Positions 7,856 through 39,622 are shown, counted from the stretch's first letter. The stretch: DNA of 64,000 bases from an uncultured Bacillota bacterium (GCA_963804645.1 CAWDRG010000010.1:64001-128000), one strand, 5' to 3'. Numbers and translations: made by a program. The notes: generated by a model not told the origin, from the letters alone.

Positions 7856-7907
7856 CAGACGGCTCCGACGCGCGGCCGGGCGGGAACTCCCGGCGGCCTC
7901 TCGGCCG

Positions 7908-10832: not shown

Positions 10833-10842
10833 GCGGTCCTCC

Positions 10843-12505: not shown

Positions 12506-12656
12506 TCCCGGAGTGATCGAGTCGGTGCGACCGGTACGGTTCGCCGAGGATTTGTCGGCCCCTGCTCTCCGCGGCGTTCCCCGCTGCGCGCGAAAGGGTC
12601 GCTCACCCGTTCGGGGGGGGACTGGGCCAAAAGTACGTTCCGGCGGGAAACCCGAC

Positions 12657-12667
12657 TGTGCTATAAT
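12657..12667 (+). promoter_or_regulatory. Extended -10 promoter (TGTGCTATAAT) just upstream of the PilX-like gene
   Basis: Perfect TGnTATAAT, 9 nt before the ATG at 12677, with no Shine-Dalgarno sequence. This suggests a near-leaderless mRNA. Confidence 0.65.
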
Positions 12668-12676
12668 TTCGGGCAT

Positions 12677-18315: not shown

Positions 18316-19140
18316 ATGGCGTGTCGCGTGTTCATCTCGGCGGACATCGAAGGGGTGGCCGGCGTCGTCACGAGCCTCCAGGTCGCCGACACGGCGAGGC
18401 AGTACCAGGAGGGGCGGGAGCTCATGACCGCCGAGGTCAACGCGGCGATCGCGGGCGCGTACGACGGCGGCGCGACGGACGTGACGGTCTGCGACAGCCA
18501 CGCGGCGATGCAGAACCTGATCCCCTCGCGCCTCGACGAACGCGCGGTGCTCGTGCGCGGCGCGATGCGCGACTCGCTCCAGATGGAAGGGATGGACGCC
18601 TCGTTCCACGCGGTGTTCGTCACGGGAACGCACGGCCGCGCCGGCACGGCCGACGCGGTGATGGATCATACTTGGAACGGCGCGGTCATCTACAATCTCC
18701 GGATCAACGGGCGCACGGTCAACGAGACCGAGCTGAACGCGCTCGTCGCCCACCGCTTCGGCGTCCCCGTGGCGCTCGTCACCGGCGACGAGGCCACGCT
18801 GGCGCAGACGCGCGAGACCCTGCCGGACGCCGTCATGGTCCCGGTAAAGGCTGGCCGCGCGCGGGGCGCGGCGGCGAGCGTGCACCCCGCGGAAGCCTGC
18901 CGGCGGATCCGCGCGGGCGCGGCCGAGGCGGTGCGGACGCGCGGCAACATCGCCGTCCCGGCGGTCCCCTCCCCCCTCGTCATGGAGATCGACTACATGC
19001 GGACGGACATGGCGCAGACCGCGGCGCTCGTCCCGGGCGTCGCGCGCATCGCGCCGCGCACCGTCCGCGTCGAAGCCGACCCCGACACGATGTTCCGGAT
19101 CCAGGAATTGATCGTCTACCGGCTGCGGTACGAGCTCTAG
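18316..19140 (+). CDS. Peptidase M55 D-aminopeptidase (DppA-like)
   Basis: FISADIEG (DxE), DSH, GTHG, HTW, NETE and VTGD zinc-site motifs. GGAGG RBS. Confidence 0.9.
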   Translation: MACRVFISADIEGVAGVVTSLQVADTARQYQEGRELMTAEVNAAIAGAYDGGATDVTVCDSHAAMQNLIPSRLDERAVLVRGAMRDSLQMEGMDASFHAVFVTGTHGRAGTADAVMDHTWNGAVIYNLRINGRTVNETELNALVAHRFGVPVALVTGDEATLAQTRETLPDAVMVPVKAGRARGAAASVHPAEACRRIRAGAAEAVRTRGNIAVPAVPSPLVMEIDYMRTDMAQTAALVPGVARIAPRTVRVEADPDTMFRIQELIVYRLRYEL

Positions 19141-19180
19141 CATCGGCGGCCGTCCATTCAGCGAAGGAGGGAGATACGCG

Positions 19181-19975
19181 ATGAGACTCGGTGAGATGAC
19201 TTGGACGCAGGCCCGCGAGGCGGTGGACGCGGGCGTGACCGCGGTGCTGCCGCTCGGCTCGATCGAGGAGCACGGCCCCCACAACGTGATGGGCGACTAT
19301 CTGGCCTGCGACAAGATCACGGCCGCCGCGACGGAGCTGACCGGCGACGTCATGGCGCCGGTCGTCCCCTACGGCTACTCCGAGTACTTCCGGAACTACC
19401 CAGGCACGATCACGCTCAGGGCGTCCACGCTCGCGCGGGTGGTCACGGACGCGCTCGACTGCCTGCTGCACCATCACTTCGCCCGCGTCGCCATCTTCAA
19501 CGGCCACTCCGGCAACGGCAGCGTCCTCAACCTGGTCACGCGGCGGTTCCGCCGGATGCACGGCATCGTGATCCCGACGCTGAACGTGCTGGGGCTCACG
19601 CAGACGCCCGAGTTGATCGAGCGCGTCTACGGCGGGAAAGTCGGCCTCGGCCACGGCGGCGAACCGATGGGGTCGCTGATGATGCACGTCGCGCCCGGCA
19701 AGGTGCGCATGGAGCGCGCCGGCGAGTGGGGCCGGGGGCAGGTGTTCGGCGTGCCGACGGAGGGCCTCGATGGGATCCGCGTCGATGGCATCCGCGTGTC
19801 GGTCCCCCTCGACATGGAGGACGTGACGCCGCCGAGCGGGAGCCTGTCCGACCCGACGCTCGCGACGCCGGAGCGCGGTCGGCAGCTGTTCGACAGTGCG
19901 GTCGACGGGTGCGCACGATTCCTCCGGTGGTTCCGAAACGTGGACCCCTACCTCGGGAGCGGCGCGCCCCGATAG
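19181..19975 (+). CDS. Creatininase family amidohydrolase
   Basis: LPLGSIEEHGPH, D, NGHSGN and GHGGE. Confidence 0.88.
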   Translation: MRLGEMTWTQAREAVDAGVTAVLPLGSIEEHGPHNVMGDYLACDKITAAATELTGDVMAPVVPYGYSEYFRNYPGTITLRASTLARVVTDALDCLLHHHFARVAIFNGHSGNGSVLNLVTRRFRRMHGIVIPTLNVLGLTQTPELIERVYGGKVGLGHGGEPMGSLMMHVAPGKVRMERAGEWGRGQVFGVPTEGLDGIRVDGIRVSVPLDMEDVTPPSGSLSDPTLATPERGRQLFDSAVDGCARFLRWFRNVDPYLGSGAPR

Positions 19976-20026
19976 CGCGTGCGCGCGACCGGCGGAGCGC
20001 AGCGGCCGAAAGGAGGGGGTGTGGCG

Positions 20027-21031
20027 ATGAGAGACCTTCACACGATCCCGCGGGTCCAGCTGGCGTTTACGCCGACGCCCCTCCAGGACGTCCCGCGGCT
20101 GGCGAAGACGCTTGGTCTCCGGCGCCTGCTGATCAAGCGAGACGACCAGACCGGGCTTGCGCTCGGAGGGAACAAGGCGCGCAAGCTGGAGTTTCTGCTT
20201 GCCGACGCAATCGCCCAGGGCGCGGACACGGTCGTGACCATGGGCGGCCCGCAGTCCAACCACTGCCGCATGACCGCGGCGGCCGCCCGGGTGTGCGGCC
20301 TGCGGGCGCAGTTGGTGTTCAACACGTACGACCTGCGGCCGGTCGACGACGTGCAGGGCAATATGATCCTCGACCGGTTGCTGGGCGCATCCTGGAGGTT
20401 CACCAAGCCGGGCCAAACGAGGAACGACTGCGTGCAGGAAGTCGCGGCGGAGCTCACCGCGCAGGGGCGCAGGCCGTACATCATCCCGGCCGGAGGCAGC
20501 AACGGCCTCGGCGTCTTGGGCTACGTCAGGGCGGCCCTGGAGCTGTCCGAGCAGTGCCGCGACCTCGGGGTGACGCCCGACTATATCGTGTGCGCTGGCG
20601 GGTCCTACGGAACGCAGGCCGGCCTCGAGTTGGGCGTGCGCCTCGCCGGGCTGCCGTCGCGGGTCGTCGGTGTCGGCGTGTCGGGCCTGGTCCCCGAGAT
20701 TCACGCCCGCATCGCGTCCTTGGTGGAGGCGGCGGCGGGCTTCCTGGAGACCTCGGTTCCTGGGGCTGATCCGCTGGTCTGGGAGGATTACGCCGGCGAC
20801 GGGTACGGCGTGCCGACCGAGGCATCGCGGCAGGCCCTAGAATTGGTCGCGTCGACGGAGGGCATTCTGCTGGACCCCGTGTATACCGCCAAGGCGTTTT
20901 CCGGCCTCATGGGAGAACGTCGCCGGGGCCGAATCACACCCGATGACGTCGTGGTCTTCGTGCACACGGGAGGCGCCCCTGCGCTCTTCGCCGAGCAGCG
21001 GCTGTATTGGGGGCCCGTCCCCACCGGCTGA
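20027..21031 (+). CDS. D-cysteine desulfhydrase family PLP enzyme (ACC deaminase fold)
   Basis: KRDDQTGLALGGNKARKLE, QSNH, LDPVYTAK and HTGG. Confidence 0.88.
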   Translation: MRDLHTIPRVQLAFTPTPLQDVPRLAKTLGLRRLLIKRDDQTGLALGGNKARKLEFLLADAIAQGADTVVTMGGPQSNHCRMTAAAARVCGLRAQLVFNTYDLRPVDDVQGNMILDRLLGASWRFTKPGQTRNDCVQEVAAELTAQGRRPYIIPAGGSNGLGVLGYVRAALELSEQCRDLGVTPDYIVCAGGSYGTQAGLELGVRLAGLPSRVVGVGVSGLVPEIHARIASLVEAAAGFLETSVPGADPLVWEDYAGDGYGVPTEASRQALELVASTEGILLDPVYTAKAFSGLMGERRRGRITPDDVVVFVHTGGAPALFAEQRLYWGPVPTG

Positions 21032-21113
21032 GCGGCCCGCCGGCAGATGACGCGGCCCCTGTGAGGCTCGTCCCGCGGCAGGAGTACGGGCCTGCAGGCG
21101 GAATGCGTGGCCC

Positions 21114-22658
21114 ATGTGGGTTCGGGTCGCGGCCACCGTGGGTATCCTGGCCGTCGCGGTCGCAGTCGGGATTCACCCCGCGTTTCCGGCGCCATCCAGC
21201 ACCGCGCTCACCTACGCCCTGATCTCCACCGGGACGAGCAAGATTCCGGCCTTCACGACCACCGGAGAAGACGTGCAGGTCATGACGCAGCTGTACGACG
21301 CGCTGCTGCAGGTGGACCCGAAGACGCTCAAGGTCGGCCCGGACTTGGCCACCGGGTACACGGTCAGCCGCGACGGCCTCACGTGGACCTTCACGCTCCG
21401 CAAGGGCGTCAAGTGGCAGCGCGGTTTCGGCGACTTCACCTGCGCCGACGTACAGTTCACCTGGGCGCTCCACAAGAATCCGGACACGCATTCGTTCTGG
21501 CGGACGGAGGCCGAGACCGCGGACAGCGTGAGCTGCCCGGACCCGTACACGGCCGTGCTGCACCTGCGCGCGCCGTTCCAGGGGTTCCTTTGGAACGTCG
21601 TCAACGTCCAGCCGTCAACCGGGTGGGTGCTGTCCAAGGCGGCGTGGGACAAGCTCGGCCGGGCGGGCTACGAGAAGACGCCCGTCGGCACCGGCCCGTT
21701 CGTGTACGACACGCTGCTGGCCGGCCAAAGCCAGACGCTGACCCGCAACCCGGACTACTGGGGCCAACGTCCGGGTGTGGACACGGTCACGTACGTCGTC
21801 GTGGCCGACAGCCAGACCGCGGCGCTCGCGGTCAAGAGCGGCGCCCTCGACATCGACGGCACCGTCGACCCCGTCACCGCGGCGTCGTACAGCCATGACC
21901 CCAGCGTCCGCCTCGTGATGAAGCCCTCGTTCTTCATCGATTACCTGGCGGTCAACACGTCGCTCAAGCCGTTTGACAACGTGGACGTGCGCCAGGCGAT
22001 GCGGGACGCGATCGACTACAAAGGGCTCGTGTCGTCGGTCTTCCAGAACTTCGCGGTCCCGGGCTACGCCGGACTGCTGCTGCCCGGGATGGTCGGCTAC
22101 GACCCGTCGATCAGCCCGCAGAACGTGTACGCACCTGACAAGGCAAGAGCGCTGCTGCGGGAATCCGCCGTGCCGCTCCCGATTCGCGGATTCTTCACCA
22201 CGTACAACGACACGAAGGACATCAACATGGCGCAGTTCATCGCCGCGAACTTTGCCGCGGTGGGGATCGACCTCCAGGCGCGGCCGCTCGAGCGGGGCAC
22301 GCTGGTACAGGAGCGCGTCCAAGCCACGACCCCGGCCTCGGTGATCGGGACGATCTACACGACCGACCCGGACTTCGCGTTCGCCACCTTCACCAGCGCG
22401 AATCTGCCTCCGGCAGGGCTGAACATTCCGCGCTACACGCGGATCGATGCGCTGTACACACAGCAGCACACTGCGGTGACCGCCGCGGACCGCCTCCGCG
22501 CGGTCAAGCAGGCGTCTCAGCGGCTCGCCATGGACGTGCCGATCATCGAGCTGATTCAGCAGCAGGATCTCTGGCTCGCCAACCCGCGCGTGCAGAACTT
22601 CGAGCCCACGATTCTGTTTAGCGGCGACCCGCTCTGGCCGGTGACGCTGAGACCGTAG
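21114..22658 (+). CDS. ABC family-5 substrate-binding protein with no adjacent permease
   Basis: Signal peptide, DGLTWTFTLRKGVKW, PVGTGPF and PFDNVDVRQAM. Confidence 0.88.
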   Translation: MWVRVAATVGILAVAVAVGIHPAFPAPSSTALTYALISTGTSKIPAFTTTGEDVQVMTQLYDALLQVDPKTLKVGPDLATGYTVSRDGLTWTFTLRKGVKWQRGFGDFTCADVQFTWALHKNPDTHSFWRTEAETADSVSCPDPYTAVLHLRAPFQGFLWNVVNVQPSTGWVLSKAAWDKLGRAGYEKTPVGTGPFVYDTLLAGQSQTLTRNPDYWGQRPGVDTVTYVVVADSQTAALAVKSGALDIDGTVDPVTAASYSHDPSVRLVMKPSFFIDYLAVNTSLKPFDNVDVRQAMRDAIDYKGLVSSVFQNFAVPGYAGLLLPGMVGYDPSISPQNVYAPDKARALLRESAVPLPIRGFFTTYNDTKDINMAQFIAANFAAVGIDLQARPLERGTLVQERVQATTPASVIGTIYTTDPDFAFATFTSANLPPAGLNIPRYTRIDALYTQQHTAVTAADRLRAVKQASQRLAMDVPIIELIQQQDLWLANPRVQNFEPTILFSGDPLWPVTLRP

Positions 22659-22689
22659 CCCGGTCGAGCCGTACGAGCGCCGTCTGGGA

Positions 22690-23922
22690 CTACTCCGGGC
22701 CGAGACGCGCCCGCAGCAGCGCCTGCTCCGCGGGATTCGCCGTCAGCGCGATCGCGCGGAGGTCGGCCGCCCTCGCCTCTTCGGCGCGGCCGAGCGCGCG
22801 CAGCAGCTCGGCGCGGGTCGCGTGGAACAGATGGTACCGGTCGAGCGCCGGCGCGAGCGCGTCGGTCTCCGCGAGCGCCGCGGCGGGGTCCGCCGCGTAG
22901 CGGAGCGCGATCGCGCGGTTGAGGGCGACGATCGGCGACGGGTCGAACCGCGCGAGCACGTCGTACAGCGCCAGGATCTCCGCCCAGTCCGTCGTCTCCC
23001 AGGACGCCGCCTCTGCGTGGCACGCCACGATCGCCGCCTGCAGCTGGTACGGCCCCGGGTGCCGCAGCCGCGCCGCCTGCTCGAGGAGCGCGACGGCGCC
23101 CGAGATCGCCGCGCGGTCCCACCGGCGCCGGTCCTGGTGCTGAAGCAGCACGAGGCGCCCCTCGGGGCCGAGCCGCGCCCGGTCGCGCGCCCGGTGCAGA
23201 CGGATCAGCGCGAGCAGGCCCATGACCTCAGGCTGATCGGGAAGCAGACGTGCGAGCAGCGCCGTCAGCCACTCCGCGTCCTCCGCGAGGTCTCGCCGTG
23301 CCGCCGCGGGCCCGCCGGTCGACAGATAGCCTTCATTGAAGAGCAGATACAGGACGCGCAGCACGCCGGTGAGGCGCGCGGTGAGATCTCCGGGGCCCGG
23401 CACGCGATACGGAATCCGCGCCTCCACGATCTTCCGCTTGGCGCGCACGATCCGCTGCGCGATCGCCGGCTCGTTCGAGAGGAACGCCCGCGCGATCTCC
23501 GCGGTCGTCAGCCCGAGGACGGCGCGCAGCGTCAGCGCGAGCTGCCCCTCCGGAGCGAGGGCCGGATGGCAGCACGTGAAGATCAGCCGGAGGCGGTCGT
23601 CGGGCTCACCCGGAGGACCGTCGGGCTCCACGAAGGCGCGCGCCAGCAGCTCCTGATAGCGGCTCTCGCGCCGCCAGCGGTCGATCGCCTTGCGGCGGGC
23701 GGCCGTGAGCAACCACGCGCCGGGGCGATCCGGGATCCCCTCGGTCGGCCAGTGCTGGAGCGCGGCCAGCAGCGCGTCCTGGACGAGGTCCTCCGCGTCG
23801 TTGAAGTTGCCCAGCGCGCGCACGAGCGCGCCGGTCAGCCGCCCCGTCTCCTCCCGAACGACGCGGACGATCGCGGCGTGCGTCGCCGCGACCGCCCCGC
23901 GCCCAGGGCCCTGGCTATCCAC
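22690..23922 (-). CDS. ECF42-type sigma factor with DUF6596/TPR C-terminal extension
   Basis: AEDLVQDA, RLIFTCCHPAL, EIARAFL...QRIVRAK, FNEGY, PYQLQAAI and ALNRAIA. Confidence 0.88.
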   Translation of the reverse strand: MDSQGPGRGAVAATHAAIVRVVREETGRLTGALVRALGNFNDAEDLVQDALLAALQHWPTEGIPDRPGAWLLTAARRKAIDRWRRESRYQELLARAFVEPDGPPGEPDDRLRLIFTCCHPALAPEGQLALTLRAVLGLTTAEIARAFLSNEPAIAQRIVRAKRKIVEARIPYRVPGPGDLTARLTGVLRVLYLLFNEGYLSTGGPAAARRDLAEDAEWLTALLARLLPDQPEVMGLLALIRLHRARDRARLGPEGRLVLLQHQDRRRWDRAAISGAVALLEQAARLRHPGPYQLQAAIVACHAEAASWETTDWAEILALYDVLARFDPSPIVALNRAIALRYAADPAAALAETDALAPALDRYHLFHATRAELLRALGRAEEARAADLRAIALTANPAEQALLRARLGPE

Positions 23923-24250
23923 GCTCCACGATCGGCCTGATCTCCACCAGATGGTTCTGGGGGGCCGGCCACGACTTGGCGATCGCGATCGCGGCGTCGA
24001 GATCCGGGACGTCGAGAATGCCGTACCCGCCGATCGTTTCCTTGGCCTCGACGAACGGTCCGTCGGTGACGACCGGCTGGCCGCCCTTCCACCGCACCGT
24101 CGTGGCGGTGCTGGCGGATCGCAGCTGATGGCCGCCGATGATGCGCCCCGCGCGCGCATGCTCGCCCCACCACCGCATGACCGACTCGCTCGGACCCTCC
24201 TTCTCCATCGCTTCCCCGTCCGTCTGCACCAGCAGCATCATGTACTTCAT
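23915..24250 (-). CDS. YciI/DGPF family protein
   Basis: VVTDGPFVEAKETIGGY and VEIRP. This is the usual ECF42 partner. Confidence 0.9.
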   Translation of the reverse strand: MKYMMLLVQTDGEAMEKEGPSESVMRWWGEHARAGRIIGGHQLRSASTATTVRWKGGQPVVTDGPFVEAKETIGGYGILDVPDLDAAIAIAKSWPAPQNHLVEIRPIVERG

Positions 24251-24361
24251 GGCCGCGCTCCTCCCCAACCCGATGTGCGGTTCGCCTTCACCCTTCTCGA
24301 CGAACGGAAGGGGCTGAATTCGACAGCCCCCGGACGCCGCCCGACGTCCTGGCGCGCGCGG

Positions 24362-25234
24362 CTAGGCGCGTTGCCGCGGGTCCAGCGCGTCGCGCAGGCC
24401 GTCGCCGACCATGTTGAACGCGAGCGTGACGACCAGAATCACGAGGCCTGGGACCACGACGAGCTGCGGGCTGCTCGTAATGTAGTCGCGGCCGATGCTC
24501 ATCATCGCCCCCCACTCGGGCGTCGGCGGCTGGACGCCCAGCCCGAGAAAGCTCAGCCCGGACACGGTGAGGATCGCCGTGGCCAGGCGCAGCGTCGCCT
24601 CGACCACCAGCGGCGACAGAATGTTCGGAAACACGTGCCGCGCCATGATCAACCGCTCGCTCGCCCCGAGGGTCCGCGCCGCCTGCACGTAGACCTCTTC
24701 CCGTACCAAGAGCGTCGACCCGCGGGCGATGCGCGCGAACGGCGGGATCGAGTTGACGCCGATCGCGATGATGACGTTGCCCATGCTGGGGCCGAGCGCG
24801 GCGATGATCGCGACCGCGAGCAGAAACCCCGGCAGCGCGAGCAGGACGTCCATGATCCGCATGATCGCGGTGTCCGCGGCGCCGCCGCGGTACCCGGCCA
24901 CCACCCCGAGCGCCGAGCCGCTCACGAACGCGATCGCCACGGCCGCGCCCGTGACGAGCAGCGTGTTGCGCCCGCCCCAGATGAGCCGGCTCAGCACGTC
25001 GCGGCCGAGCTCGTCGGTCCCGAGCGGGTGGGCGCGCGACGGGGCCGCCGTGGTATGGCTCATGTCGAACGCGTTCGGACTGTAGGGGGCGAGCAGCGGC
25101 GCCGCCGCGCTCACCGCGACGGCGAGTACCAGGACCGCGAGCCCCGCGACCGCGGCGCGGTGGCGCCCAAACTGCCGGACCGCCCGGGCCGCCGGAGTCT
25201 GCCCCGCCGGCAGCGCCGGCACCGCCACCGCCAT
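24362..25234 (-). CDS. ABC permease, DppC/OppC-like
   Basis: HPLGTDELGRD, EAA-like loop YVQAARTLGA, and PPTPEWG. Confidence 0.92.
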   Translation of the reverse strand: MAVAVPALPAGQTPAARAVRQFGRHRAAVAGLAVLVLAVAVSAAAPLLAPYSPNAFDMSHTTAAPSRAHPLGTDELGRDVLSRLIWGGRNTLLVTGAAVAIAFVSGSALGVVAGYRGGAADTAIMRIMDVLLALPGFLLAVAIIAALGPSMGNVIIAIGVNSIPPFARIARGSTLLVREEVYVQAARTLGASERLIMARHVFPNILSPLVVEATLRLATAILTVSGLSFLGLGVQPPTPEWGAMMSIGRDYITSSPQLVVVPGLVILVVTLAFNMVGDGLRDALDPRQRA

Positions 25235-26154
25235 CAGTCGAACCGGATCCGGGGATCGAGGTAGGCGTAGAGCACGTCGACCGCGAGGTTGACGACGATG
25301 AACGTGATCGACAGCACCATCACGGCCGACTGCACGACCACGACGTCGCGCGAGCGGATCGAGTCGACGATCAGCCGGCCGAGCCCCGGCCGGGCGAACA
25401 CGGTCTCCGTCAACACGGTCCCGCTCAGGAGATACCCGAGCTGGAGCCCCACCACCGTGACGATCGGGATGACCGCGTTCCGAAACGCGTGGCGCATCAC
25501 CACCGCCCAGCGCGTCGCCCCTTTGGCTTCGGCCGTGCGCAGATAGTCCTGCTGGAGGACCTCCAGCATGGCCGACCGGACCTGCCGGGCGATGATCGCC
25601 GTCGACGCCGCGCCGAGCGTCAGCGCCGGGAGAATGAGCTGGGCGGTCGTTCCGGCGCCGGTGCTCGGCAGCCAGCGCAGGTCGACCGAGAACGTCATCA
25701 TCAGCATCAGCCCGAGCCAGAAGATCGGCATCGACACCCCGAGCGCGGCGCCGACCGACGCGATCGCGTCCCAGGCCGAGCGCTGGTGCGTGGCCGCGGT
25801 CACGCCCATCACGACGCCCGCCGCCACGGCCAGCCCCAGCGCGGAGCCCGCGAGCTCCGCGGTCGGCCGCACGCGGGTGGCGATCTCGTACGAGACCGGC
25901 CGGCGCGTGACCGCCGACCGGCCGAGGTCGAACCGGGCCAGGCGGCCCAGCCACAACGCGTACTGCACGTACACGGGGCGGTCGAGACCCAGCTCGTGGC
26001 GGATCGCCTGGACGTCGGCGGCCGTCGCGTCCGTGCCGGCCACGACCACGGCCGCGTCGCCCGGGATCATCTTCAAGATCCCGAACACGATCAGGGAGAC
26101 GCCGAGCACCACCGGGAGGGCCCAGAGGACGCGCCCGGCGATGTGGCGCAGCAT
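25234..26154 (-). CDS. ABC permease, DppB/OppB-like
   Basis: PGDAA, LGLDRP, SMPIFWLG, RHAFRNA and TETVFARPGLG. Confidence 0.92.
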   Translation of the reverse strand: MLRHIAGRVLWALPVVLGVSLIVFGILKMIPGDAAVVVAGTDATAADVQAIRHELGLDRPVYVQYALWLGRLARFDLGRSAVTRRPVSYEIATRVRPTAELAGSALGLAVAAGVVMGVTAATHQRSAWDAIASVGAALGVSMPIFWLGLMLMMTFSVDLRWLPSTGAGTTAQLILPALTLGAASTAIIARQVRSAMLEVLQQDYLRTAEAKGATRWAVVMRHAFRNAVIPIVTVVGLQLGYLLSGTVLTETVFARPGLGRLIVDSIRSRDVVVVQSAVMVLSITFIVVNLAVDVLYAYLDPRIRFD

Positions 26155-26172
26155 CAGGCTAGGGGCGCGGGC

Positions 26173-27768
26173 TCAGGAGCGGCGCGCGAGCTGACCGGGC
26201 ACGAAGTCTCCGGTGGGCAGGACGATATAGCCCGAGGTGCCGTTGCGCGAGCCCCAGAGATTCACCATCTGGAACAGGTAGATCAGGGGCTGGTCCTGCC
26301 AGATCAGCGCCTGCGCCTGCCTGAGGATCGGCAGCCGCTTCGCCGGGTCGAACGTGCTGCGCTCCTGGTCGAGCAGCTTGTCGACCTGCGGGTTCGAGTA
26401 GCCGGTGCGCTGCTGCGTCCCCGGCACGTTCGTCGCCGCGGAGTCGTACATGCGGTAGAGGTGATAGTCGATGTACGGGCTGGCCTTGAGGAGCGACGTC
26501 ATCGCCCCCGGGCGGGAGTCCGGATCCGACGAACTGCCGACCAGCAGCGTCGCGAAGTCCATCGAGTGGACGACCACCCGCAGGCCGATGAGCGTCCAGT
26601 ACCCCTGGACGGCCTCGACGACCTGGGTGTCGCCGGCCCACCGGCCGTCGGTGATGTTGATCGTCAGGTCCATGCCGTTCGGGTAGCCCGCCTCGGCCAG
26701 CAGGTTCTTCGCCGCGACCGGGTCGTACTTCACCGGCGCAAAATTATAGCTGCCCCAGATCCCCGGGATCCCCGGGCTGTTCAGCGGGATCGCGTACCCC
26801 TTCATGATCCCGCGGATGATCGCGTCCTTGTCGATCGCCATGTTGAGCGCGCGGCGGACCCGGACGTCGTGGAGCGGCGCCTTCGTCTGCGCCGGCTCGA
26901 GCTCCGCGATCTCCGCGGCCGGCGTCGCACGGGCGGTCAGGCCGGTCTCCTGCTTGAGGGCGTCGATGTCCGCGGGCGGCAGATCCAGCACGACGTCCGC
27001 CTCGCCGGTCTTGAGCACGACCACGCGCGCGGCCGCTTCCGGAATCGGCCGGTACACGAACCGCCGCACCCGCGGCTTGGGCCCCCAGTAGTCGGGGTTC
27101 GCCGTGGCCGAGGCGTGATCGTTCGGCACCCACTCCTCGAACGCGAACGCGCCGGTGCCGACGGGGTGCCGCCCGAAATCCTGTCCGTAGGTCCGCAGCG
27201 CCGTGGGGCTCACGATCTTGGCGGACCCGTCGGCCATGAGCAGCGCAAAGTCGGGGTTCGGCGGGTCGGTGGTGAAGCGCACCGTGTGGTCGTCGGGCGT
27301 GGCGACGTCCTTGATGAGCTGGTAGTTGCCGCGCCGCGTCGCGGGCACGCTCTTGTCGTTGATGTGGTCGATCGTCGCCTTGACCGCGGCGGACGTGAAC
27401 GGCGTCCCGTCGTGGAACTTGACCCCGGACCGCAGCACGAACGTCCAGGTCCGGCCGTCCGGGGCAACGCTCCACGAGGTCGCGAGCGCGGGCACGATCT
27501 CTCCCTTTTCGTTCCACTGGACGAGCCCGTCGAAGATCGCGTTGATGATCCCCTGGAACGGACCCGTGCCGACCGCGGGGTCAAGACTGTTCGGCTCGGT
27601 GCCCTGCGACACCACGAAGGTGTCGTTCCGCGCCACCGGACTCGACGCCGCGCGGACGATCACCGCGGGAACCCCCCGCGACGCGGCCCCCGCGCCGAGC
27701 GCGAGCGCCACCGCGCCCGACCGCACCGCCGCCTGCTTCAGCAACTCACGACGCCGAATCCGCTTCAT
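26173..27768 (-). CDS. ABC family-5 substrate-binding protein with a Tat-like signal
   Basis: IRRRELLK leader, SLDP, VKFHDGTPF and PVGTGAF. Confidence 0.9.
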   Translation of the reverse strand: MKRIRRRELLKQAAVRSGAVALALGAGAASRGVPAVIVRAASSPVARNDTFVVSQGTEPNSLDPAVGTGPFQGIINAIFDGLVQWNEKGEIVPALATSWSVAPDGRTWTFVLRSGVKFHDGTPFTSAAVKATIDHINDKSVPATRRGNYQLIKDVATPDDHTVRFTTDPPNPDFALLMADGSAKIVSPTALRTYGQDFGRHPVGTGAFAFEEWVPNDHASATANPDYWGPKPRVRRFVYRPIPEAAARVVVLKTGEADVVLDLPPADIDALKQETGLTARATPAAEIAELEPAQTKAPLHDVRVRRALNMAIDKDAIIRGIMKGYAIPLNSPGIPGIWGSYNFAPVKYDPVAAKNLLAEAGYPNGMDLTINITDGRWAGDTQVVEAVQGYWTLIGLRVVVHSMDFATLLVGSSSDPDSRPGAMTSLLKASPYIDYHLYRMYDSAATNVPGTQQRTGYSNPQVDKLLDQERSTFDPAKRLPILRQAQALIWQDQPLIYLFQMVNLWGSRNGTSGYIVLPTGDFVPGQLARRS

Positions 27769-27828
27769 GCCATCACTCCCCTTGTCGTAGTCCGGTCCCC
27801 CGTGCCCGCCCCGCTCCGCCTCCCTACC

Positions 27829-28953
27829 CTACGGTGACGCCGCCGCCTCCGGTTCGCGCGCCGCGGCACCCCGGGGCTCGAAGCCGTACAGCTCCGCCGC
27901 GGTGTCGTAGAAGATCCGTCGCCCAAGGTCCTGGGGCAGCCGCGGGAACGCGTCGGCCGGCGAGTCGAAGTCCCAGTGCGGGTAGTCCGACGCAAACATC
28001 AGGGTCCGCTCCGCGCGGTTCCATTGAAAGACTTCCAGGAGGTGGGCGGGCTGCTCCGGCTCCTCGAGCGGCTGGGACGTAAACCGGACGTGCTCCCACA
28101 CGTACTCGCTCGGCGGCCGCGTAACCCAGGGGGTCTGATCGCGCAGACCCTTCCAGTCCGCATCCAGGCGCCACAGGAACGGTGCCAGCCACGCGTACCC
28201 GCCCTCGATGAACACCACGCGCAGCCGCGGGAACTTCTCGAAGACGCCCTCGAAGATCAGGCTGGTGAGGTGGGTCATGTACCCCTGCGGCCGGACCTGG
28301 CGGTTCTCCACGTAGTACGAGCCGTAGCCGGCGACCGACGGCTGGCCGTTGATCCCGGCGCCCTCGCTGCCGGTGTGCAGCGCGAACGGAAGTCCGAGCG
28401 CCTGGCACGCCTCGAAGATCGGGTGGTAGTAGCGGTTGCCGTACGGCAGCCGCGCCCCGTTCGCGACCAGCACCTCGACGATCGATGGGTGCGGGCCGGT
28501 GCGCTCGATCTCCCGCACCGCCTGGCCCACGTCCTGGGTGGCGATCAGCATCGCGCCCCGGAGCCGCGGCTCCCGCTCGAGCCAGTGCTCGATCAGGAAC
28601 TGATTGTACGCGCGCGCGAGCGCGGCGGCGTAGTCGGCGTCCGGAAGCGTCCCGAGCGGCCGCAGCTCCTGCCCGAGGAGAATCGCGTACGCCACGTGGT
28701 ACCGGTCCAGCAGCTGCTCGCGCAGCAGGTCGAGATCGGATCCCGCGTACCCGCCTCCGGCGGGCCACGCGTCGGCCCGGTAGCCGCGGTCGCCGCCGTT
28801 GAGGTAGCCGCCGCTCGGGAGGTTGACGCCCCACTGCTTGATGTCTTCCTGGTACACGCGCGGCAGGTAGGGCAGGATCTCCTTCATGCCGCGGTCGTGG
28901 AACCGGTTGTGGACGTCGCAGTCGATGATCGGAGCGGTCGGCGTCGCCGCCAT
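27829..28953 (-). CDS. Amidohydrolase_2-fold protein, candidate amidohydrolase-related dinuclear oxygenase
   Basis: IIDCDVH (D-x-H), ALHTG, GVFEKFPRLRVVFIEGG, SQPLEEP and FASDYPHWDFD. Lies directly downstream of a Rieske ferredoxin. Confidence 0.85.
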   Translation of the reverse strand: MAATPTAPIIDCDVHNRFHDRGMKEILPYLPRVYQEDIKQWGVNLPSGGYLNGGDRGYRADAWPAGGGYAGSDLDLLREQLLDRYHVAYAILLGQELRPLGTLPDADYAAALARAYNQFLIEHWLEREPRLRGAMLIATQDVGQAVREIERTGPHPSIVEVLVANGARLPYGNRYYHPIFEACQALGLPFALHTGSEGAGINGQPSVAGYGSYYVENRQVRPQGYMTHLTSLIFEGVFEKFPRLRVVFIEGGYAWLAPFLWRLDADWKGLRDQTPWVTRPPSEYVWEHVRFTSQPLEEPEQPAHLLEVFQWNRAERTLMFASDYPHWDFDSPADAFPRLPQDLGRRIFYDTAAELYGFEPRGAAAREPEAAASP

Positions 28954-28990
28954 CGCGCGTGCCTCCTCGCGGCCGGGCCTGTCCCGCCGG

Positions 28991-29395
28991 TCAGGCGTGC
29001 AGGATCACCAGCTCGCCCTCGGTCGTCACCGAGAACGTCTCCAAGACGACGTCCTCGACGACGGGCCGTTCGATCGTCACGTCGTACGTCTTCACCCGCA
29101 TCCGGTGCGGGTTGAAGTACGTGCGCCCCGTCGCGATCTCGAACTCCCATCCGTGCCAGGGGCACTGGATGATCTCGTCATCCCGCGCGTACACCCGCTC
29201 GTACGGCCGCCCGGGAAGCGTCGTGCCCTTAATCCGACCGAGGCAGAGGGGCGCCCCCTGGTGCGGGCACCGGTTCCGAAGGGCAAAGAACCGGCCGCGG
29301 ATATTGAACACCCCGATCGACCGGCCGTCGACGGTCACGATTGTCCGGCTGCCGGGAGGCAGCTCCGTCACCTTCCCTACCACGCACCGTGACAT
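28991..29395 (-). CDS. Rieske [2Fe-2S] ferredoxin
   Basis: NRCPHQGAPL and QCPWHGWEF motifs. Confidence 0.9.
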   Translation of the reverse strand: MSRCVVGKVTELPPGSRTIVTVDGRSIGVFNIRGRFFALRNRCPHQGAPLCLGRIKGTTLPGRPYERVYARDDEIIQCPWHGWEFEIATGRTYFNPHRMRVKTYDVTIERPVVEDVVLETFSVTTEGELVILHA

Positions 29396-29568
29396 CGGCG
29401 GCGCACCCGCGCTCGGCGTGCCTCACCTTACGCGGCGGGGCGGGCCGAATCCTCCGCGTTCCCCGGGACGGCCCGCGCGCCGCGTGGGAGGCGGAGAGAT
29501 GCGCGGCGAACTTCCCGTCCGAGAGCCGGCGCCTCCCGGGCGCCCCACGTCGAGTAGGAGCGATCCGC

Positions 29569-30708
29569 ATGGCGAACGACGCGTTCACGGAGCGGGGCCC
29601 GAACAACTCCCTGACGGACGTCGGCCGCATCCGCGTCGGCCACGTCACGCTGGTGTCCGGGGACGGTCCGCTCGTCCCGGGCCGCGGCCCCGTGCGCACC
29701 GGGGTCACGGCGATCATCCCCGACGACGACATCTACGAGCACAAGTGCGCCGCCGGCGTCCACGTCATCAACGGCTTCGGCAAGATGACCGGGATCTCGC
29801 AGGTCGAGGAGATGGGCCGCCTCGAGACCCCGATCGCCCTGACGAGCACGCTGTGCGTGTGGCACGCGGCGGACGGGATCGTCGACTATCTCCTGCGCCG
29901 GCACCCGGATCTGGGACGGATCGGACCCACCTGCAACCCGATCGTCGGCGAGTGCAGCGACGCCCGCCTCAACGACATGCGGGGGCGCCACGTGCGCGCG
30001 GAGCACGTGCTCGACGCGCTCGACCGCGCCACGCGCGCGCCGGTCGAGGAGGGCGCCGTCGGCGCCGGCACCGGCATGATCTGCTACGAGATGAAGGGCG
30101 GAATTGGCGCGTCGTCGCGCACCGGCCGCTCGAGCGTGCTCGACCGGGCCGTGACGGTCGGCGGCCTCGTGCTCGCCAACTTCGGGCGGCGCAGGTTTCT
30201 CCGGATCCACGGCTGCCCGGTGGGTACCCTCCTCGATGAGGCCGCGGCGCCGCGGGACGCCGCCGAGCCCGGTTCCGGCCGCGGCGGCTCGGTGATCGTG
30301 ATCCTCGCGACGGACGCGCCGCTGACGTCGCGGCAGCTCACCCGCGTGGCCCGCCGCGCCGCGGCCGGGCTGGCGCGCACCGGATCGGTGTACCACAATC
30401 ACAGTGGAGATTACGTCCTGGCCTTCAGCACCGCGCGGGCGTACCCGCCCTTCCTCGGGGACGAGGACGAGCTGATCAACCCGTTCTTCGAGGCGGCGGC
30501 CGACGTAACCGAAGAGGCGGTGATCCGCGCGCTGCTGTGCGCCCGTCCGATGACCGGACGGGACGGCTATCGCGTCGAGGCCCTCGGCGCGGCGCGGCTC
30601 CGCGACATCTGGGATCGCTGGCGTCGCCGCCCGGACGCGGCACCCGGATCCGCGACCACGGCCGCGCTCGATCTCGAGGGGCTGGTGGGGCCGCGCGTGC
30701 TCGACTGA
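29569..30708 (+). CDS. Peptidase S58/P1 DmpA-like aminopeptidase
   Basis: GPNNSLTDV, NGFGK, VGECSD, GAGTGM...KGGIG, Gly-Ser autocleavage site GGSVIVILATDAPL, and SGD. Confidence 0.88.
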   Translation: MANDAFTERGPNNSLTDVGRIRVGHVTLVSGDGPLVPGRGPVRTGVTAIIPDDDIYEHKCAAGVHVINGFGKMTGISQVEEMGRLETPIALTSTLCVWHAADGIVDYLLRRHPDLGRIGPTCNPIVGECSDARLNDMRGRHVRAEHVLDALDRATRAPVEEGAVGAGTGMICYEMKGGIGASSRTGRSSVLDRAVTVGGLVLANFGRRRFLRIHGCPVGTLLDEAAAPRDAAEPGSGRGGSVIVILATDAPLTSRQLTRVARRAAAGLARTGSVYHNHSGDYVLAFSTARAYPPFLGDEDELINPFFEAAADVTEEAVIRALLCARPMTGRDGYRVEALGAARLRDIWDRWRRRPDAAPGSATTAALDLEGLVGPRVLD

Positions 30709-30824
30709 GCCGGCCGTGGTAGGTGCGGCCCGACCGGACACCGGCCGAGCGGACCCGGCAGCCGGGAGGGAGTGTGCGGTTCCAGAGACAAGTCTTCACC
30801 CAACACGGTTGCGGAGGGACGCAC

Positions 30825-31442
30825 GTGAAACAACGTACATGGTTTGGCCTGGCACTGGTAGCCGTGTTTGCGATCGGCGTGCTCGCCGCGCCCGCGCTCG
30901 CCGATCCCACGGTGACCGGCGATCCGAGCGCGTGGGCGGACCTCAAAGCCGCGTGGATGAAGCTCTACTCGCTCCCGGGGTTTCGCGCCAAGGTGACGAC
31001 CCAGAACGGCACGGACATTGTGATGGAGTTCGTTCCCCCGGACTCGATGCACATGACCGCGCAGACCCAGGCCGGCCCGATGGAGATGATCAAGGTCGGC
31101 CAGAAGACGGCGATGAAGCTCGGCATGGCGGGCGCGCCGGCCGGATGGCAGTGCCGGGACATCCCCCAACCCACGACCATGCCGGACCTGAATAACGTCC
31201 AGGGAGCGATCAATATCACCCGGGAACCAGATACGAACGTCAACAACACGCCCGTCCACGCGTTTCTCTACAGCGCGACCACGCCCGGATCGCAGACGAC
31301 CAACAAGGGCACCTGGTACATCGGCATCCAGACCGGCCTGCCCGTGCGGTTCCTCATTGATGGAGGACCGGGGAACCAGAGCACCATCGACTACTACGAC
31401 TACGGCGCGGCGATCACGATCACGATGCCCCCCTGCGGGTGA
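30825..31442 (+). CDS. Secreted hypothetical protein (possibly LolA/LppX-like fold)
   Basis: Sec signal ending ALA-D, EFVPPD, WYIG..TGLP and IDYYDYGAAITITMP. GGAGGG RBS. Confidence 0.65.
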   Translation: MKQRTWFGLALVAVFAIGVLAAPALADPTVTGDPSAWADLKAAWMKLYSLPGFRAKVTTQNGTDIVMEFVPPDSMHMTAQTQAGPMEMIKVGQKTAMKLGMAGAPAGWQCRDIPQPTTMPDLNNVQGAINITREPDTNVNNTPVHAFLYSATTPGSQTTNKGTWYIGIQTGLPVRFLIDGGPGNQSTIDYYDYGAAITITMPPCG

Positions 31443-32387
31443 ACGTCAGGCACGGAGCCGCGGCATCGACCACCGCGGGCACGCTCGGTTCGACCACTGA
31501 TCCAGCGCGGCACGCGCGCCTCTCGGGCCGCCGACGCCGGCGGCGCGCCTCCGGGGCGCTGAGCGTCTTCCTCGCCCTCTGCCTCGCCGTCTCGACGATC
31601 CCGTCCGCGGCCGCCCCGCGCGCCCGGGACCCTCGCCGCGTTTCGGACGCTCGACCCGCTCCTCGACGGTCTCGTGCCGGCAACACTCTACCGGCCCGCG
31701 GGCGTCGGCCCGTTTCCCGGCGTCGTGCTGCTCCACGGCTGCGGCGGCCTCGGCCCGTCGATCTACGCGTGGGGGCGATGGCTGCAGGCCGCGGGATACG
31801 AGGCGCTCGTCGTCAACAGCATGGCCCCGCGCTCCGTGAAGACCGTGTGCGTCGTCGGCGGACATCCGACGGACCGCGACCAGGCGCTCGACGCGTTCGG
31901 AGCCCTCGAGTATCTGCGCACGCTGCCGGAGATCGACCCGCACCGCGCCGCCGTGATCGGGTGGTCGCACGGCGGGGGCGCCGCGCTCGAGATCGCCGGC
32001 GCCGCGTTCGTCGCGTCGGCGCTGCCCGCCGGCGGCGGGTTCCAGGCGGTGATCGCGTTCTATCCGGCGTGCACGCTCCTGCCGCGGCGCGGCTTCTCCG
32101 CGCCGACGCTGATCCTCATCGGGAGCGACGACGACTGGTCTCCGCCGCAGTCCTGCGAGGCGGGCGTGCCGCCGCTGCAGGCCGCGGGCGCGCCGCTCGA
32201 GTGGCACCTCTACCCGAACGCGACGCACGCCTTCGACACGCCGGGAAGCAGCCGGGTGCTGCACATCTCGGGACGGAGCTTCACGCTGCGCTACGACGCG
32301 CAGGCCGCGGCGGACGCGCACACGCGCGTCGCCGCGTTTCTCGCACAGCACCTCGCCGCCCCGCGGCCTAGGCGAAGCGCGCCGTGA
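31439..32387 (+). CDS. Dienelactone hydrolase family alpha/beta hydrolase, probably secreted (frameshift near 31620; start uncertain)
   Basis: GPFPGVVLLHGCGG, GWSHGG nucleophile motif, GSDDDW and YPNATHAFD. The signal-like segment lies in the upstream frame. Confidence 0.8.
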
Positions 32388-34709: not shown

Positions 34710-34734
34710 AACTTTGTGCCTTGGAAGGCGTGGA

Positions 34735-35406
34735 ATGTCGGTCGTCACCGGCGTGATGCAAGATTATCTCAAGACGATCTACAAGCTGCAGCGGGACCGC
34801 GGCGCCGTGTCGACGTCGGAGGTCGCCGACCGCCTGCACGTGTCCCCGGCGTCGGCGACGAACATGATCAAGCGCCTCGCCCGGCTGCGGCTCGTCTCGT
34901 ACACGCGCTACCACGGGTTCGTGCTCGCCCCCGCGGGACAGCGCATCGCGCTCGAAACGATCCGCCACCACCGGCTGCTCGAGCTGTATTTGGCGGAGCA
35001 TCTGGGCGTCGGCCTGGACAAGGTCGACAGCGAGGCGGAACGGTTGGAGCACGTCCTGTCCGAGGACGTCGAGGCCCGGATTGCGACCACGCTCGGCAAC
35101 CCGACGCGGGACCCGCACGGCGATCCGATTCCGGCGGCGGACGGCACGATCCGCGACGTGCGGTATCCCAGCCTCGACACGCTCTCTCCGGGAGACAGCG
35201 CCCGCGTGGCGCGCGTGAGCGACCGCAGCCAGGCGCTGCTGCGGCGCCTGACCGCGCTCGGCCTGCGGCCGGGGGTGACGTTGAAGATGGTCGCGCGCCG
35301 CCCGAGCGGCTGCCGGATCGAGATCGCGGGACGCGAGGTCCGCGTGCCGCGCAGCCTGTGCGAAGGAGTGTTCATCGAGTGGACCGGCGTCCCGACCCCG
35401 TCTTGA
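34735..35406 (+). CDS. mntR: DtxR/MntR family metal-dependent repressor with a FeoA-like domain
   Basis: QDYLKTIY, IRHHRLLELYL, EAERLEH and DPHGDPIP. Confidence 0.9.
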   Translation: MSVVTGVMQDYLKTIYKLQRDRGAVSTSEVADRLHVSPASATNMIKRLARLRLVSYTRYHGFVLAPAGQRIALETIRHHRLLELYLAEHLGVGLDKVDSEAERLEHVLSEDVEARIATTLGNPTRDPHGDPIPAADGTIRDVRYPSLDTLSPGDSARVARVSDRSQALLRRLTALGLRPGVTLKMVARRPSGCRIEIAGREVRVPRSLCEGVFIEWTGVPTPS

Positions 35407-36692
35407 CGGAGCCCCTCCCCGGCGATGTCCGCACCGTCTCGGCGGCCCAGGATGTGCTCACCGGACGCAGCACGCGCCGCGGGCTGCTGCGGCTCCTGCC
35501 GTTTCTCGGGCCGGCGTTCATCGCGTCCGTCGCGTATATCGACCCCGGGAACTTCGCCACCAACATCCAGGGGGGCGCCCAGTTCGGCTACCGGCTCGTC
35601 TGGGTCGTCCTGGCCAGCAACCTCGTGGCCATGGTCGTGCAGACGCTCTCCGCGAAGCTCGGCATCGCCACCGGCCGCAACCTCGCCGAGATGTGCCGCG
35701 AGGAGTTCACCATGCCGGTCGTCTGGGGCATGTGGGGGCTGTCCGAGGTCGTCGCCATGGCGACGGACCTGGCCGAGTTCGTCGGGGCCGCGATCGGATT
35801 CAACCTGCTGCTGGGGATTCCGCTGCTGTGGGCGGCCCTGCTGACCGGCGTGACAACGATGATCATCCTCGCGCTCGAGCGGCGCGGCTTCCGCCCGCTG
35901 GAAGCGGTGATCACCGCCCTCGTGGGCGTCATCGCGGTATCGTACCTGCTCGAAACCATCCTGGACCGCCCCGACTGGCACGCGATCGGCCAGTCGGTGG
36001 CCCATCCGGTGCTGGGGGCCAGCGACTCGGTGCTGCTCGCCGTCGGCATCCTCGGAGCGACGGTCATGCCCCACGTCGTCTTCCTCCATTCCGCGCTGAC
36101 GCAGCGCCGCGTGACGACCGAGACGGACGCGCAGGCGCGCCAGCTGTTCAAGTTCGAGGTCTTCGACGTGGTGATCGCGATGACGCTCGCCGGCCTCGTG
36201 AACGCGGCGATGCTGGTGATGGCCGCGGCGACGTTCTGGGCGCACGGGCTGACGAAGATCGCCACGATCGAGGAATCCTATCGGACCCTCGCCCCCCTCT
36301 TAGGACACGCCAGCAGCTTCGTGTTCGCCATCTCCCTGCTCGCGTCCGGCCTCTCCTCCTCCGCGGTCGGCACGATGGCCGGCCAGATCATCATGCAGGG
36401 CTTTATCCGCCGGCAGATCTCGATCTGGGTGCGGCGCCTGGTCACGATGATCCCCGCGGTCGTCGTCATCGCGATCGGTCTGGACCCGACGCGCACCCTC
36501 GTCATCAGCCAGGTCATCCTGAGCTTCGGGCTCCCGTTCGCGCTCATCCCGCTGGTGATCTTCACGCAACGCCGGCGGCTGATGGGCACGCTCACGAATG
36601 CGAGGCCGACCACCGTGGTGGCGTGGCTGGTCGTGGGCATGATCGTCGCGCTCAACATCTACCTCCTCTACACGACCTTCACCGGGGGATAG
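35403..36692 (+). CDS. mntH: NRAMP divalent metal (Mn2+) transporter
   Basis: YIDPGN, GATVMPH and GTMAGQ. The TTG start overlaps the mntR stop. Confidence 0.93.
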   Translation: MTEPLPGDVRTVSAAQDVLTGRSTRRGLLRLLPFLGPAFIASVAYIDPGNFATNIQGGAQFGYRLVWVVLASNLVAMVVQTLSAKLGIATGRNLAEMCREEFTMPVVWGMWGLSEVVAMATDLAEFVGAAIGFNLLLGIPLLWAALLTGVTTMIILALERRGFRPLEAVITALVGVIAVSYLLETILDRPDWHAIGQSVAHPVLGASDSVLLAVGILGATVMPHVVFLHSALTQRRVTTETDAQARQLFKFEVFDVVIAMTLAGLVNAAMLVMAAATFWAHGLTKIATIEESYRTLAPLLGHASSFVFAISLLASGLSSSAVGTMAGQIIMQGFIRRQISIWVRRLVTMIPAVVVIAIGLDPTRTLVISQVILSFGLPFALIPLVIFTQRRRLMGTLTNARPTTVVAWLVVGMIVALNIYLLYTTFTGG

Positions 36693-39607: not shown

Positions 39608-39622
39608 CGGGTCCCGGCCACC

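Follow-up and report, generated by a model that had tools for sequence, protein, structure and literature searches.

What does a gene annotated as an amidohydrolase encode when it is embedded between a Rieske ferredoxin gene and the genes of an ABC importer? The question is raised by a locus in a 64,000-nucleotide stretch of DNA from an uncultured Bacillota bacterium (GCA_963804645.1 CAWDRG010000010.1:64001-128000; hereafter the window, GC content about 71%), where translation and Pfam searches show that five co-oriented genes fill positions 24362-29395 of the minus strand. They code for a Rieske-type [2Fe-2S] ferredoxin, an amidohydrolase-fold protein, a solute-binding protein (SBP) and two permeases. 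A first reading made from the sequence alone (the sequence-only reading) had described this tightly spaced arrangement and the motifs D-x-H, ALHTG, FIEGG and SDYPHWD in the amidohydrolase-fold protein; the genes are present as described and the translation holds all the motifs, the first of them within IIDCDVH. That reading had also proposed the locus as a candidate new oxygenase system acting on the imported compound. We find that the locus as a whole is, with high probability, best explained by a multicomponent monooxygenase of the amidohydrolase-related dinuclear oxygenase (ARO) class, which would receive its electrons from the Rieske ferredoxin and act on an anionic substrate.

The second gene of the cluster (27829-28953, minus strand) codes for a protein of 374 amino acids whose residues 11-358 match PF04909 (Amidohydro_2, 9.4e-38). 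Liu et al. (JACS 2024; PMC10811679) sought AROs through small Rieske genes lying beside PF04909 genes, a rationale that the sequence-only reading also followed, and solved four homomeric AROs. When the window's protein is compared with all PDB chains (phmmer), its first matches are SfbO (8SM6, 1.2e-104), 8SM7 (1.3e-101) and 8SM9 (9e-73), followed by AibH2 (6M1W_B, 3e-70), 8SM8 (6e-62) and AibH1 (8e-41). The 8SM7, 8SM9 and 8SM8 chains are the 'TruffO' AROs D3EI84, W7L2Y2 and B6JH23, homomeric proteins also found through their Rieske neighbors. Matches to LigW (1.8e-16), DitZ (6e-13), PtmU3 (5e-10) and ACMSD (1.5e-4) are far weaker. The AF2 model of the protein, built with 56 homologues, has a pLDDT of 90.2 and a pTM of 0.90, and Foldseek superposes it on SfbO with a TM-score of 0.90-0.95, an rmsd of 1.7-2.1 Å and 46-47% identity; the identity is 36% with AibH2 and 18% with PtmU3. 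By sequence and predicted structure, the protein is thus an ARO and not an ACMSD- or decarboxylase-type enzyme. An alternative would be a non-redox, mononuclear decarboxylase, hydratase or lactonase with an unrelated Rieske neighbor: PF04909 also holds enzymes of the ACMSD, LigW and LigI types, and public protein sources label its relatives 'amidohydrolase family protein'. No NCBIfam model for AROs was found. Yet the E-values contradict this reading, as does the presence of the ARO motifs instead of the metal motif of the decarboxylases.

The motifs that define AROs are an N-terminal D-x-H on strand 1 and a C-terminal D-x-P-H-x-D/E loop (Liu et al. 2026; PMC13154177). The former provides ligands of metal site 1 and the latter, which is preceded by at least about 200 residues, ligands of site 2. 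In the window's ARO, the N-terminal motif is D13-V14-H15, located where model strand E9-14 ends, and the C-terminal one is D323-Y-P-H326-W-D328. Eight residues (D11, D13, H15, H193, E250, D323, H326 and D328) are invariant among 56 aligned sequences; H193 (in ALHTG) and E250 (in FIEGG) align with SfbO residues and are by this alignment assigned as the remaining site-1 and bridging ligands. Judging from these alignments, the full predicted set of six ligands of a dinuclear center is present, including the predicted ligands D323 and H326 of the second metal site that the sequence-only reading expected. The two motifs are not equally informative. The genome contains 15 PF04909 regions, three of which have D-x-P-H-x-[DE], whereas a D-x-H near the N-terminus also occurs in 9 of the 12 non-ARO paralogues (according to a loose regular expression that leaves the strand-1 position unchecked). 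The D-x-H that had been taken as the cue for this enzyme class is therefore present in the window's ARO, but alone it may not separate AROs from other family members here; it is the C-terminal D-x-P-H-x-D/E that discriminates. PMC13154177 reports the C-terminal D-x-P-H-x-D motif to be absent from all characterised hydrolases and decarboxylases.

The Rieske protein (28991-29395, minus strand; 134 amino acids) matches PF00355 (2.4e-17) and Rieske_4, 'soluble Rieske-type ferredoxin' (7e-9). Its best PDB matches are dioxygenase ferredoxins (1e-9), and its C43-P-H45 and C78-P-W-H81 are invariant among 55 homologues. Its gene ends 37 nt upstream of the ARO gene, whose start is preceded by a Shine-Dalgarno sequence (GAGGAGG), and it has the features of a ferredoxin partner, namely fewer than 250 amino acids, a C-x-H...C-x2-H signature and a position within three genes of the ARO. 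The search by Rieske neighbors of Liu et al. 2024 gave 3,307 ARO candidates according to PMC13154177, which itself counts about 17,000 AROs. The conservation of the linkage was studied in two sets of loci, in which genes were called by a crude, GC3-based procedure that may miss small genes. The orthologous set comprises 12 loci from 11 genomes of the window's own family, with at least 71% identity to the ARO; the 22 other genomes of the family include 14 that match the ARO at E-values of 1e-60 or better, three of them only through relatives of 40-45% identity. The distant set comprises 80 loci from species-representative genomes (37-54% identity) of Paenibacillus, Thermomicrobiales, Chloroflexota, Solirubrobacterales, Opitutaceae and others. 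A scan of metagenome contigs gave ARO relatives of 39-60% identity only, whereas the protein collection holds orthologues of 70-99%. The Rieske gene lies immediately upstream of the ARO gene in all 12 orthologous loci and a same-strand Rieske homologue is found nearby in 75 of the 80 distant ones; in one of the five others (L014) the ARO lies 166 bp from the contig end. Within the window's genome, the three PF04909 genes with D-x-P-H-x-[DE] are exactly those that adjoin a Rieske gene, on contigs C10 (this locus), C9 (at 820 kb) and C15 (at 338 kb). This conserved linkage, which the sequence-only reading had predicted, the invariance of the six-ligand set and the reported restriction of the C-terminal motif make a non-redox enzyme beside an unrelated Rieske gene extremely improbable.

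A physical interaction between both proteins is also consistent with structure prediction. The predicted ARO-Rieske complex reaches an ipSAE of 0.60 (0.55, 0.70 and 0.60 in the individual runs), while the highest value among three controls is 0.00; the partner has a pLDDT of at least 79 and the runs share at least 85% of their contacts. The prediction is graded as weak support: of the pairs used for calibration, 116 of 157 solved complexes and 2 of 215 mismatched pairs attain the mark, but a score of 0.60 or less was obtained for only 18 of these 157 complexes and for both passing mismatches. An aromatic residue at the position called gamma5 has been proposed as a ferredoxin contact (PMC13154177); in the window's ARO this position is occupied by F329.

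The closest known system is SfbO/SfbR from Litorilinea aerophila (8SM6, 8SMA, 9BU9, 9BUA; Liu et al. 2024, 2026), in which a homomeric ARO, as the window's probably is, is likewise accompanied by an adjacent small Rieske ferredoxin. SfbO is an alpha4 tetramer and an alpha4-beta4 complex with its Rieske partner has been modelled (PMC13154177). SfbO and the window's ARO share the metal ligands, an N/R/R/W pocket, a valine at gamma1, a tryptophan at gamma4 and an aromatic gamma5 (tryptophan in SfbO), but they differ in about half of their residues, including Gln273 for a tyrosine and Leu93 for the gamma2 threonine. The Rieske-then-ARO gene order here is another difference, and only the window's ARO lies in the context of a GsiB-like importer operon. 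The AibH1H2/AibG/AibF system of Rhodococcus wratislaviensis (6M1W, 8FUL-8FUO) also combines an ARO catalytic subunit, AibH2, with a Rieske ferredoxin and uses an amino acid, 2-aminoisobutyrate, in a catabolic setting, but it is heteromeric, with AibH1 as a second PF04909 subunit. No second PF04909 gene is found beside the window's ARO, whose neighbors are the Rieske and SBP genes. The Aib system has a reductase, AibF, whereas no reductase gene is present in or adjacent to the cluster studied here. PtmU3 and DitZ, which are high-potential diiron AROs, have the fold and the D-x-H/D-x-P-H-x-D/E framework in common with the window's ARO, but they are distant (18-19% identity), have a hydrophilic gamma1, mostly lack a Rieske partner and act on diterpenoids (PMC13154177).

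The rest of the genome was searched for the missing components. Contigs C9 and C15 each encode an ARO-type paralogue (37% and 35% identity, respectively, to the window's ARO) that has its own Rieske gene downstream and is surrounded by aminotransferase genes. Both pairs (C9:820133-821546 and C15:337546-338942) lack the pair of arginines discussed below; one is close to an Opp-type system and flanked by class I/II and class V aminotransferase genes, and the other is found near a Cys/Met PLP enzyme and a Rieske ring-hydroxylase. The sole Reductase_C match (C15:208438-208650) belongs to a Pyr_redox_2 and Reductase_C protein of the BphA4/putidaredoxin-reductase type that adjoins a cytochrome P450, and this protein is the only obvious candidate for a reductase acting in trans. 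The sequence-only reading was thus correct in noting a single oxygenase subunit and no local reductase, from which it had proposed a homomeric variant using a reductase encoded elsewhere. This architecture agrees with what we observe, but it is not new, since homomeric ARO-Rieske pairs without a local reductase had already been published (Liu et al. 2024, 2026).

The nature of the substrate can be approached through the active site. The residues that bind sulfate in SfbO include N67, R232, R235 and W341 (PMC10811679), which align with N52, R218, R221 and W327 of the window's ARO. Neither R218 nor R221 varies among the 56 closest clusters, whereas 8SM7 has Ser, His and Leu at the positions of N52, R218 and R221, which gives it a different substrate pocket, and AibH2 lacks the arginine pair. 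We compared these positions in 208 rows, corresponding to 207 ARO sequences from the fetched loci and the window's ARO. The signature N/R/R/Q, in which the last residue is that of Gln273, is found in 26 rows: the window's ARO, counted twice, the 12 orthologues and 12 further sequences from Paenibacillus, two Thermomicrobiales metagenome-assembled genomes (MAGs), an Akkermansiaceae MAG and one metagenome contig. Ser replaces the Asn, and Leu or Trp the Gln, in two Mesorhizobium sequences with the arginine pair. A FastTree phylogeny was built from the 193 sequences that remained once duplicates, sequences outside 320-480 residues and rows gapped at more than one of the key sites had been removed. 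In it, the sequences with the arginine pair fall into a single clade (support 0.999, 26 of 27 tips). SfbO is absent from the tree and is placed in this clade by its residue identities. Since the Asn/Arg/Arg pocket is shared and defines the clade, an anionic substrate would be expected from the sequences. Two loci found in this survey have additional family members. In Paenibacillus hemerocallicola (L049:8330-10526), a second PF04909 gene with the degenerate motif N-Y-P-Y-G-D lies directly 3' of an ARO with the arginine pair, and its sequence suggests that the product may be a non-catalytic partner similar to AibH1. A Thermomicrobiales MAG (L002:254-7454) has five tandem PF04909 genes and two Rieske genes.

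The similarity to SfbO raises the possibility that the window's ARO is a sulfonate beta-monooxygenase, which would convert taurine or an N-substituted 2-aminoethanesulfonate to sulfoacetaldehyde and an amine, the importer carrying a taurine conjugate or being unrelated. The only reaction demonstrated for SfbO, the closest characterised relative, is hydroxylation at the N-alpha C-H of 2-aminoethylsulfonates, which frees sulfoacetaldehyde, with a preference for a Mn/Fe cofactor (PMC10811679). The N, R, R and W residues of the sulfate pocket are kept, and NMT1 (SsuA/TauA-like) transporter sets adjoin three orthologues (L207, L209 and L210). Nevertheless, NMT1-family SBPs also bind non-sulfonates, and the window's SBP is GsiB-like and not TauA-like. 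Sulfoacetaldehyde acetyltransferase (Xsc) does not exceed the TIGR03457 cut-off (676 bits) in any of the five genomes searched, which include the window's own and the three with NMT1 neighbors (best score, 326 bits); this negative result weakens the route from taurine to sulfoacetaldehyde. A tyrosine of SfbO (in RDYTPW, chain residue 287) is replaced by Gln273. This tyrosine is the nearest to the 'Y280' listed for SfbO in PMC10811679, but the aligned position 280 of the 8SM6 chain is Asp, and the name may be a typographical slip or designate a residue that we did not locate; the numbers of N67, R232, R235 and W341 do agree with the chain. Moreover, PIPES is a poor surrogate substrate of SfbO (KM 83 mM; PMC10811679). 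Our literature search, in which the 2024 supplement was searched by term only and the figures and neighborhood diagrams of the two JACS papers were not seen, found no native substrate assigned to SfbO-like AROs and no ARO in an operon with a family-5 SBP. On balance, a sulfonate-specific enzyme appears unlikely.

The genes that follow the ARO encode the importer. The SBP (26173-27768, minus strand; 531 amino acids; SBP_bac_5, 7e-91) belongs to family 5 (Opp/Dpp/GsiB-like). Its N-terminus, read by eye, is RRRELLK followed by a hydrophobic stretch, which by this judgement fits a twin-arginine (Tat) signal. It is followed by an OppB/GsiC/NikB-like permease (25234-26154, minus strand; BPD_transp_1, 1e-38, and BPD_transp_1_N) and an OppC/GsiD/NikC-like one (24362-25240, minus strand; BPD_transp_1, 4e-31, and OppC_N, 3e-11). 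The gaps are 60 nt between ARO and SBP and 18 nt between SBP and first permease, while the two permease genes share a few bases. GsiB of Escherichia coli (YliB) is both the best solved match of the SBP (1uqw, 1.6e-63) and its best NCBIfam match, but the score against the GsiB model NF011942 (235.6 bits) lies under the cut-off of 594 bits and makes the protein GsiB-like only. The permeases score highly against the GsiC/D and NikB/C models, all below the cut-offs. As none of these scores reaches an equivalog cut-off, the identity of the ligand cannot be transferred. Unlike GsiB and GsiCD, which have GsiA, the importer has no locally encoded ATPase: no ATPase gene is found in the cluster and there is no oligo_HPY (OppD/F-type) match on the window's contig. 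Genome-wide, there are 22 oligo_HPY ATPase matches against at least 104 SBP_bac_5, 78 permease-1 and 76 permease-2 matches (tblastn), so that most Opp-type systems must borrow an ATPase, including the three family-5 systems without an ATPase gene in the window (21114-22658, 26173-27768 and 38054-40543). This suggests that a few ATPases are widely shared among the Opp-type importers of this genome. On the other side of the cluster, a possibly linked S58 aminopeptidase of the DmpA/BapA type (29569-30708, plus strand; Peptidase_S58, 4e-112) is encoded divergently, 173 bp from the Rieske start; it matches 2drh (3e-95), BapA (3e-62) and DmpA (8e-55) in the PDB.

Taken as an ARO-class monooxygenase fed by the Rieske protein, the system could work as follows. 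Electrons from NAD(P)H would pass through a flavin reductase encoded elsewhere, for which the protein on contig C15 is a candidate, to the [2Fe-2S] cluster of the ferredoxin. The ferredoxin would dock on the ARO, which is probably homo-oligomeric like the alpha4 SfbO, and reduce a carboxylate-bridged Mn/Fe or Fe2 site formed by D13, H15, H193, E250, D323 and H326, D328 belonging to the second shell. Once reduced, the site would activate O2 for the hydroxylation of an sp3 C-H bond in a small anionic compound that N52, R218 and R221 would keep in place. The SfbO reaction suggests, by analogy, that the carbon attacked most likely lies beta to the anionic group; should it bear a nitrogen, the product would collapse to a carbonyl compound and an amine. 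In the genus of the window, the substrate probably enters through the adjacent GsiB-like SBP and both permeases, with an ATPase shared in trans.

Several observations weigh against this explanation or parts of it. The first concerns the metals. The positions gamma1, gamma2 and gamma4 have been proposed as predictors of metal preference, low-potential, Mn-dependent AROs having a hydrophobic gamma1, a hydrophilic gamma2 at the end of beta-strand 2 and an aromatic gamma4 (Table 1 of PMC13154177). V14 (gamma1) and W327 (gamma4) conform to this description, but L93 (in AILLGQ), placed at gamma2 by its alignment with the threonine of SfbO (in AILTGG), does not, so that by sequence two of the three published features of Mn-dependent AROs would be present. 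The second concerns the electron path, since the candidate reductase is designated by being the sole member of its family found. The third concerns the substrate. Besides the replacement of the SfbO tyrosine by Gln273, the Paenibacillus AROs with the arginine pair are surrounded by genes for AraC regulators, sugar SBPs, glycoside hydrolases and a sulfatase, and this sugar-utilisation context implies that the pocket does not fix the substrate class.

Further reservations concern the importer. Of the 12 orthologous loci, only 3 have the SBP-permease cassette 3' of the ARO; they all come from the window's genus, one is 98% identical, and exactly these three also have the S58 gene. Opp-type permeases are found in only 9 of the 80 distant loci, and with at least 104 SBP_bac_5 genes in the genome a chance adjacency to the ARO is not negligible. 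Orthologues of about 80% identity adjoin NMT1/TauA-like, SBP_bac_8 or no transporters, and their neighbors are BKACE (beta-keto-acid cleavage enzyme), DegT, Amidohydro_1 or DLH genes. Two loci of the same genus (L202 and L203) have a GMC oxidoreductase gene immediately before the Rieske-ARO pair and lack an SBP cassette in between; an acetoacetate-CoA ligase lies directly 3' of the ARO in L202, and the contig ends after the ARO in L203. In other genera the arrangements are Rieske-ARO-BKACE (L204), Amidohydro_1-Rieske-ARO-DegT and DLH-Rieske-ARO with a divergent NMT1-type ABC system. The orthologue of 71% identity (L210) has Rieske and ARO followed by an NMT1 (SsuA/TauA-like) SBP, an ATPase and a permease, and in L207 and L209 the NMT1 sets are divergently upstream. 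Class-III and DegT aminotransferase genes occur near other orthologues.

One possibility is therefore that the ARO and its ferredoxin form a self-contained unit of two genes, with an internal or otherwise imported substrate unrelated to peptides, and that the adjacency of importer and S58 gene is incidental. The Rieske-ARO pair is the only element kept in all 12 loci while the flanking genes differ in 9 of them, and the loci with the GMC oxidoreductase as well as the abundance of family-5 SBPs point in the same direction. Yet the short gaps and the overlap on one strand fit a single transcript in the window's genome, and AROs with the arginine pair are also followed by family-5 SBP systems in a Thermomicrobiaceae MAG (L003) and in Mesorhizobium (L004 and L005), two unrelated lineages. 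A unit of two genes is thus a serious alternative, but not the favored one. The proposal of the sequence-only reading, a hydroxylase for whatever the SBP imports, is weak, as the cassette is confined to one genus among the orthologous loci. This reading had the enzyme class right, was wrong about its novelty and made too much of the link to the importer. Beyond the anionic class, the gene neighborhoods do not single out a substrate.

A more specific scenario was prompted by the acetoacetate-CoA ligase and GMC oxidoreductase of L202, the BKACE gene directly after the ARO in L204 and the aminotransferases near other orthologues. In this scenario the ARO would act on carboxylates as SfbO does on sulfonates: as an oxidative deaminase or N-dealkylase that depends on O2, it would use beta-amino carboxylates and complete a catabolic route for beta-peptides. 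The GsiB-like importer would bring in a beta- or gamma-linked peptide, from which the S58 aminopeptidase would free a beta-amino acid; the ARO would hydroxylate the nitrogen-bearing beta-carbon, the carboxylate being held by N52, R218 and R221. The resulting hemiaminal would yield ammonia and a beta-keto acid, such as acetoacetate from 3-aminobutyrate or malonate semialdehyde from beta-alanine, and acetoacetate-CoA ligase would take up the product. The window's copy of this ligase scores 991 bits against NF002937, over the cut-off of 639 bits, and the single BKACE gene of the genome is on contig C15, unlinked to the ARO locus. Drawn by analogy with SfbO, this scenario is a long shot that we put forward with little confidence.

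Other features of the surroundings were recorded. The next minus-strand genes after the second permease code for a YCII protein and an ECF sigma factor with DUF6596 and form a separate module (22690-24268), found 3' of the permeases only here and in the 98%-identical relative; the YCII gene (23915-24268) overlaps the annotated sigma factor start, and the sigma gene probably begins further downstream. A consensus scan of positions 22500-31500 gave no promoter-like and no terminator-like sites, a result that is uninformative at 71% GC. The DNA sequencing runs that contain at least half of the sampled sequence words are peat metagenomes, and the same word search lists no RNA runs matching the locus. 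An Nramp (MntH-type) gene (34716-36692, plus strand) lies about 5 kb from the possibly Mn-using ARO and is also found in L199; in another genus, the orthologue of 71% identity also has a homologue no more than about 8 kb away, at the edge of L210. These positions may reflect coincidence or metal supply. The minus strand at 6998-12907 codes for a molybdopterin oxidoreductase (PhsA/Ttr/DMSO-reductase family, below the cut-offs), a 4Fe-4S subunit and a NarJ/TorD-type chaperone; in L202 a molybdopterin block, whose Fe-S subunit also has an NrfD domain, directly abuts the acetoacetate-CoA ligase-ARO-Rieske-GMC genes. Finally, the plus strand at 18325-22658 carries an M55 D-aminopeptidase, a creatininase-family protein, a PLP enzyme and an orphan family-5 SBP, a second module for unusual peptides beside the ARO operon. 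The genome has 13 creatininase-family matches (tblastn).

As a class of C-H-activating enzymes, AROs have been recognised only recently; they can use Mn/Fe cofactors, have about 17,000 predicted members and few known reactions (PMC13154177), and are still named 'amidohydrolase family protein' in public annotation. The locus described here does not reveal a new architecture, but it places an SfbO-like ARO with the arginine pair in a defined context of uptake and peptidase genes. The set of orthologues of about 80% identity in varied genomic contexts is a tractable start for finding the native substrate of the SfbO branch.

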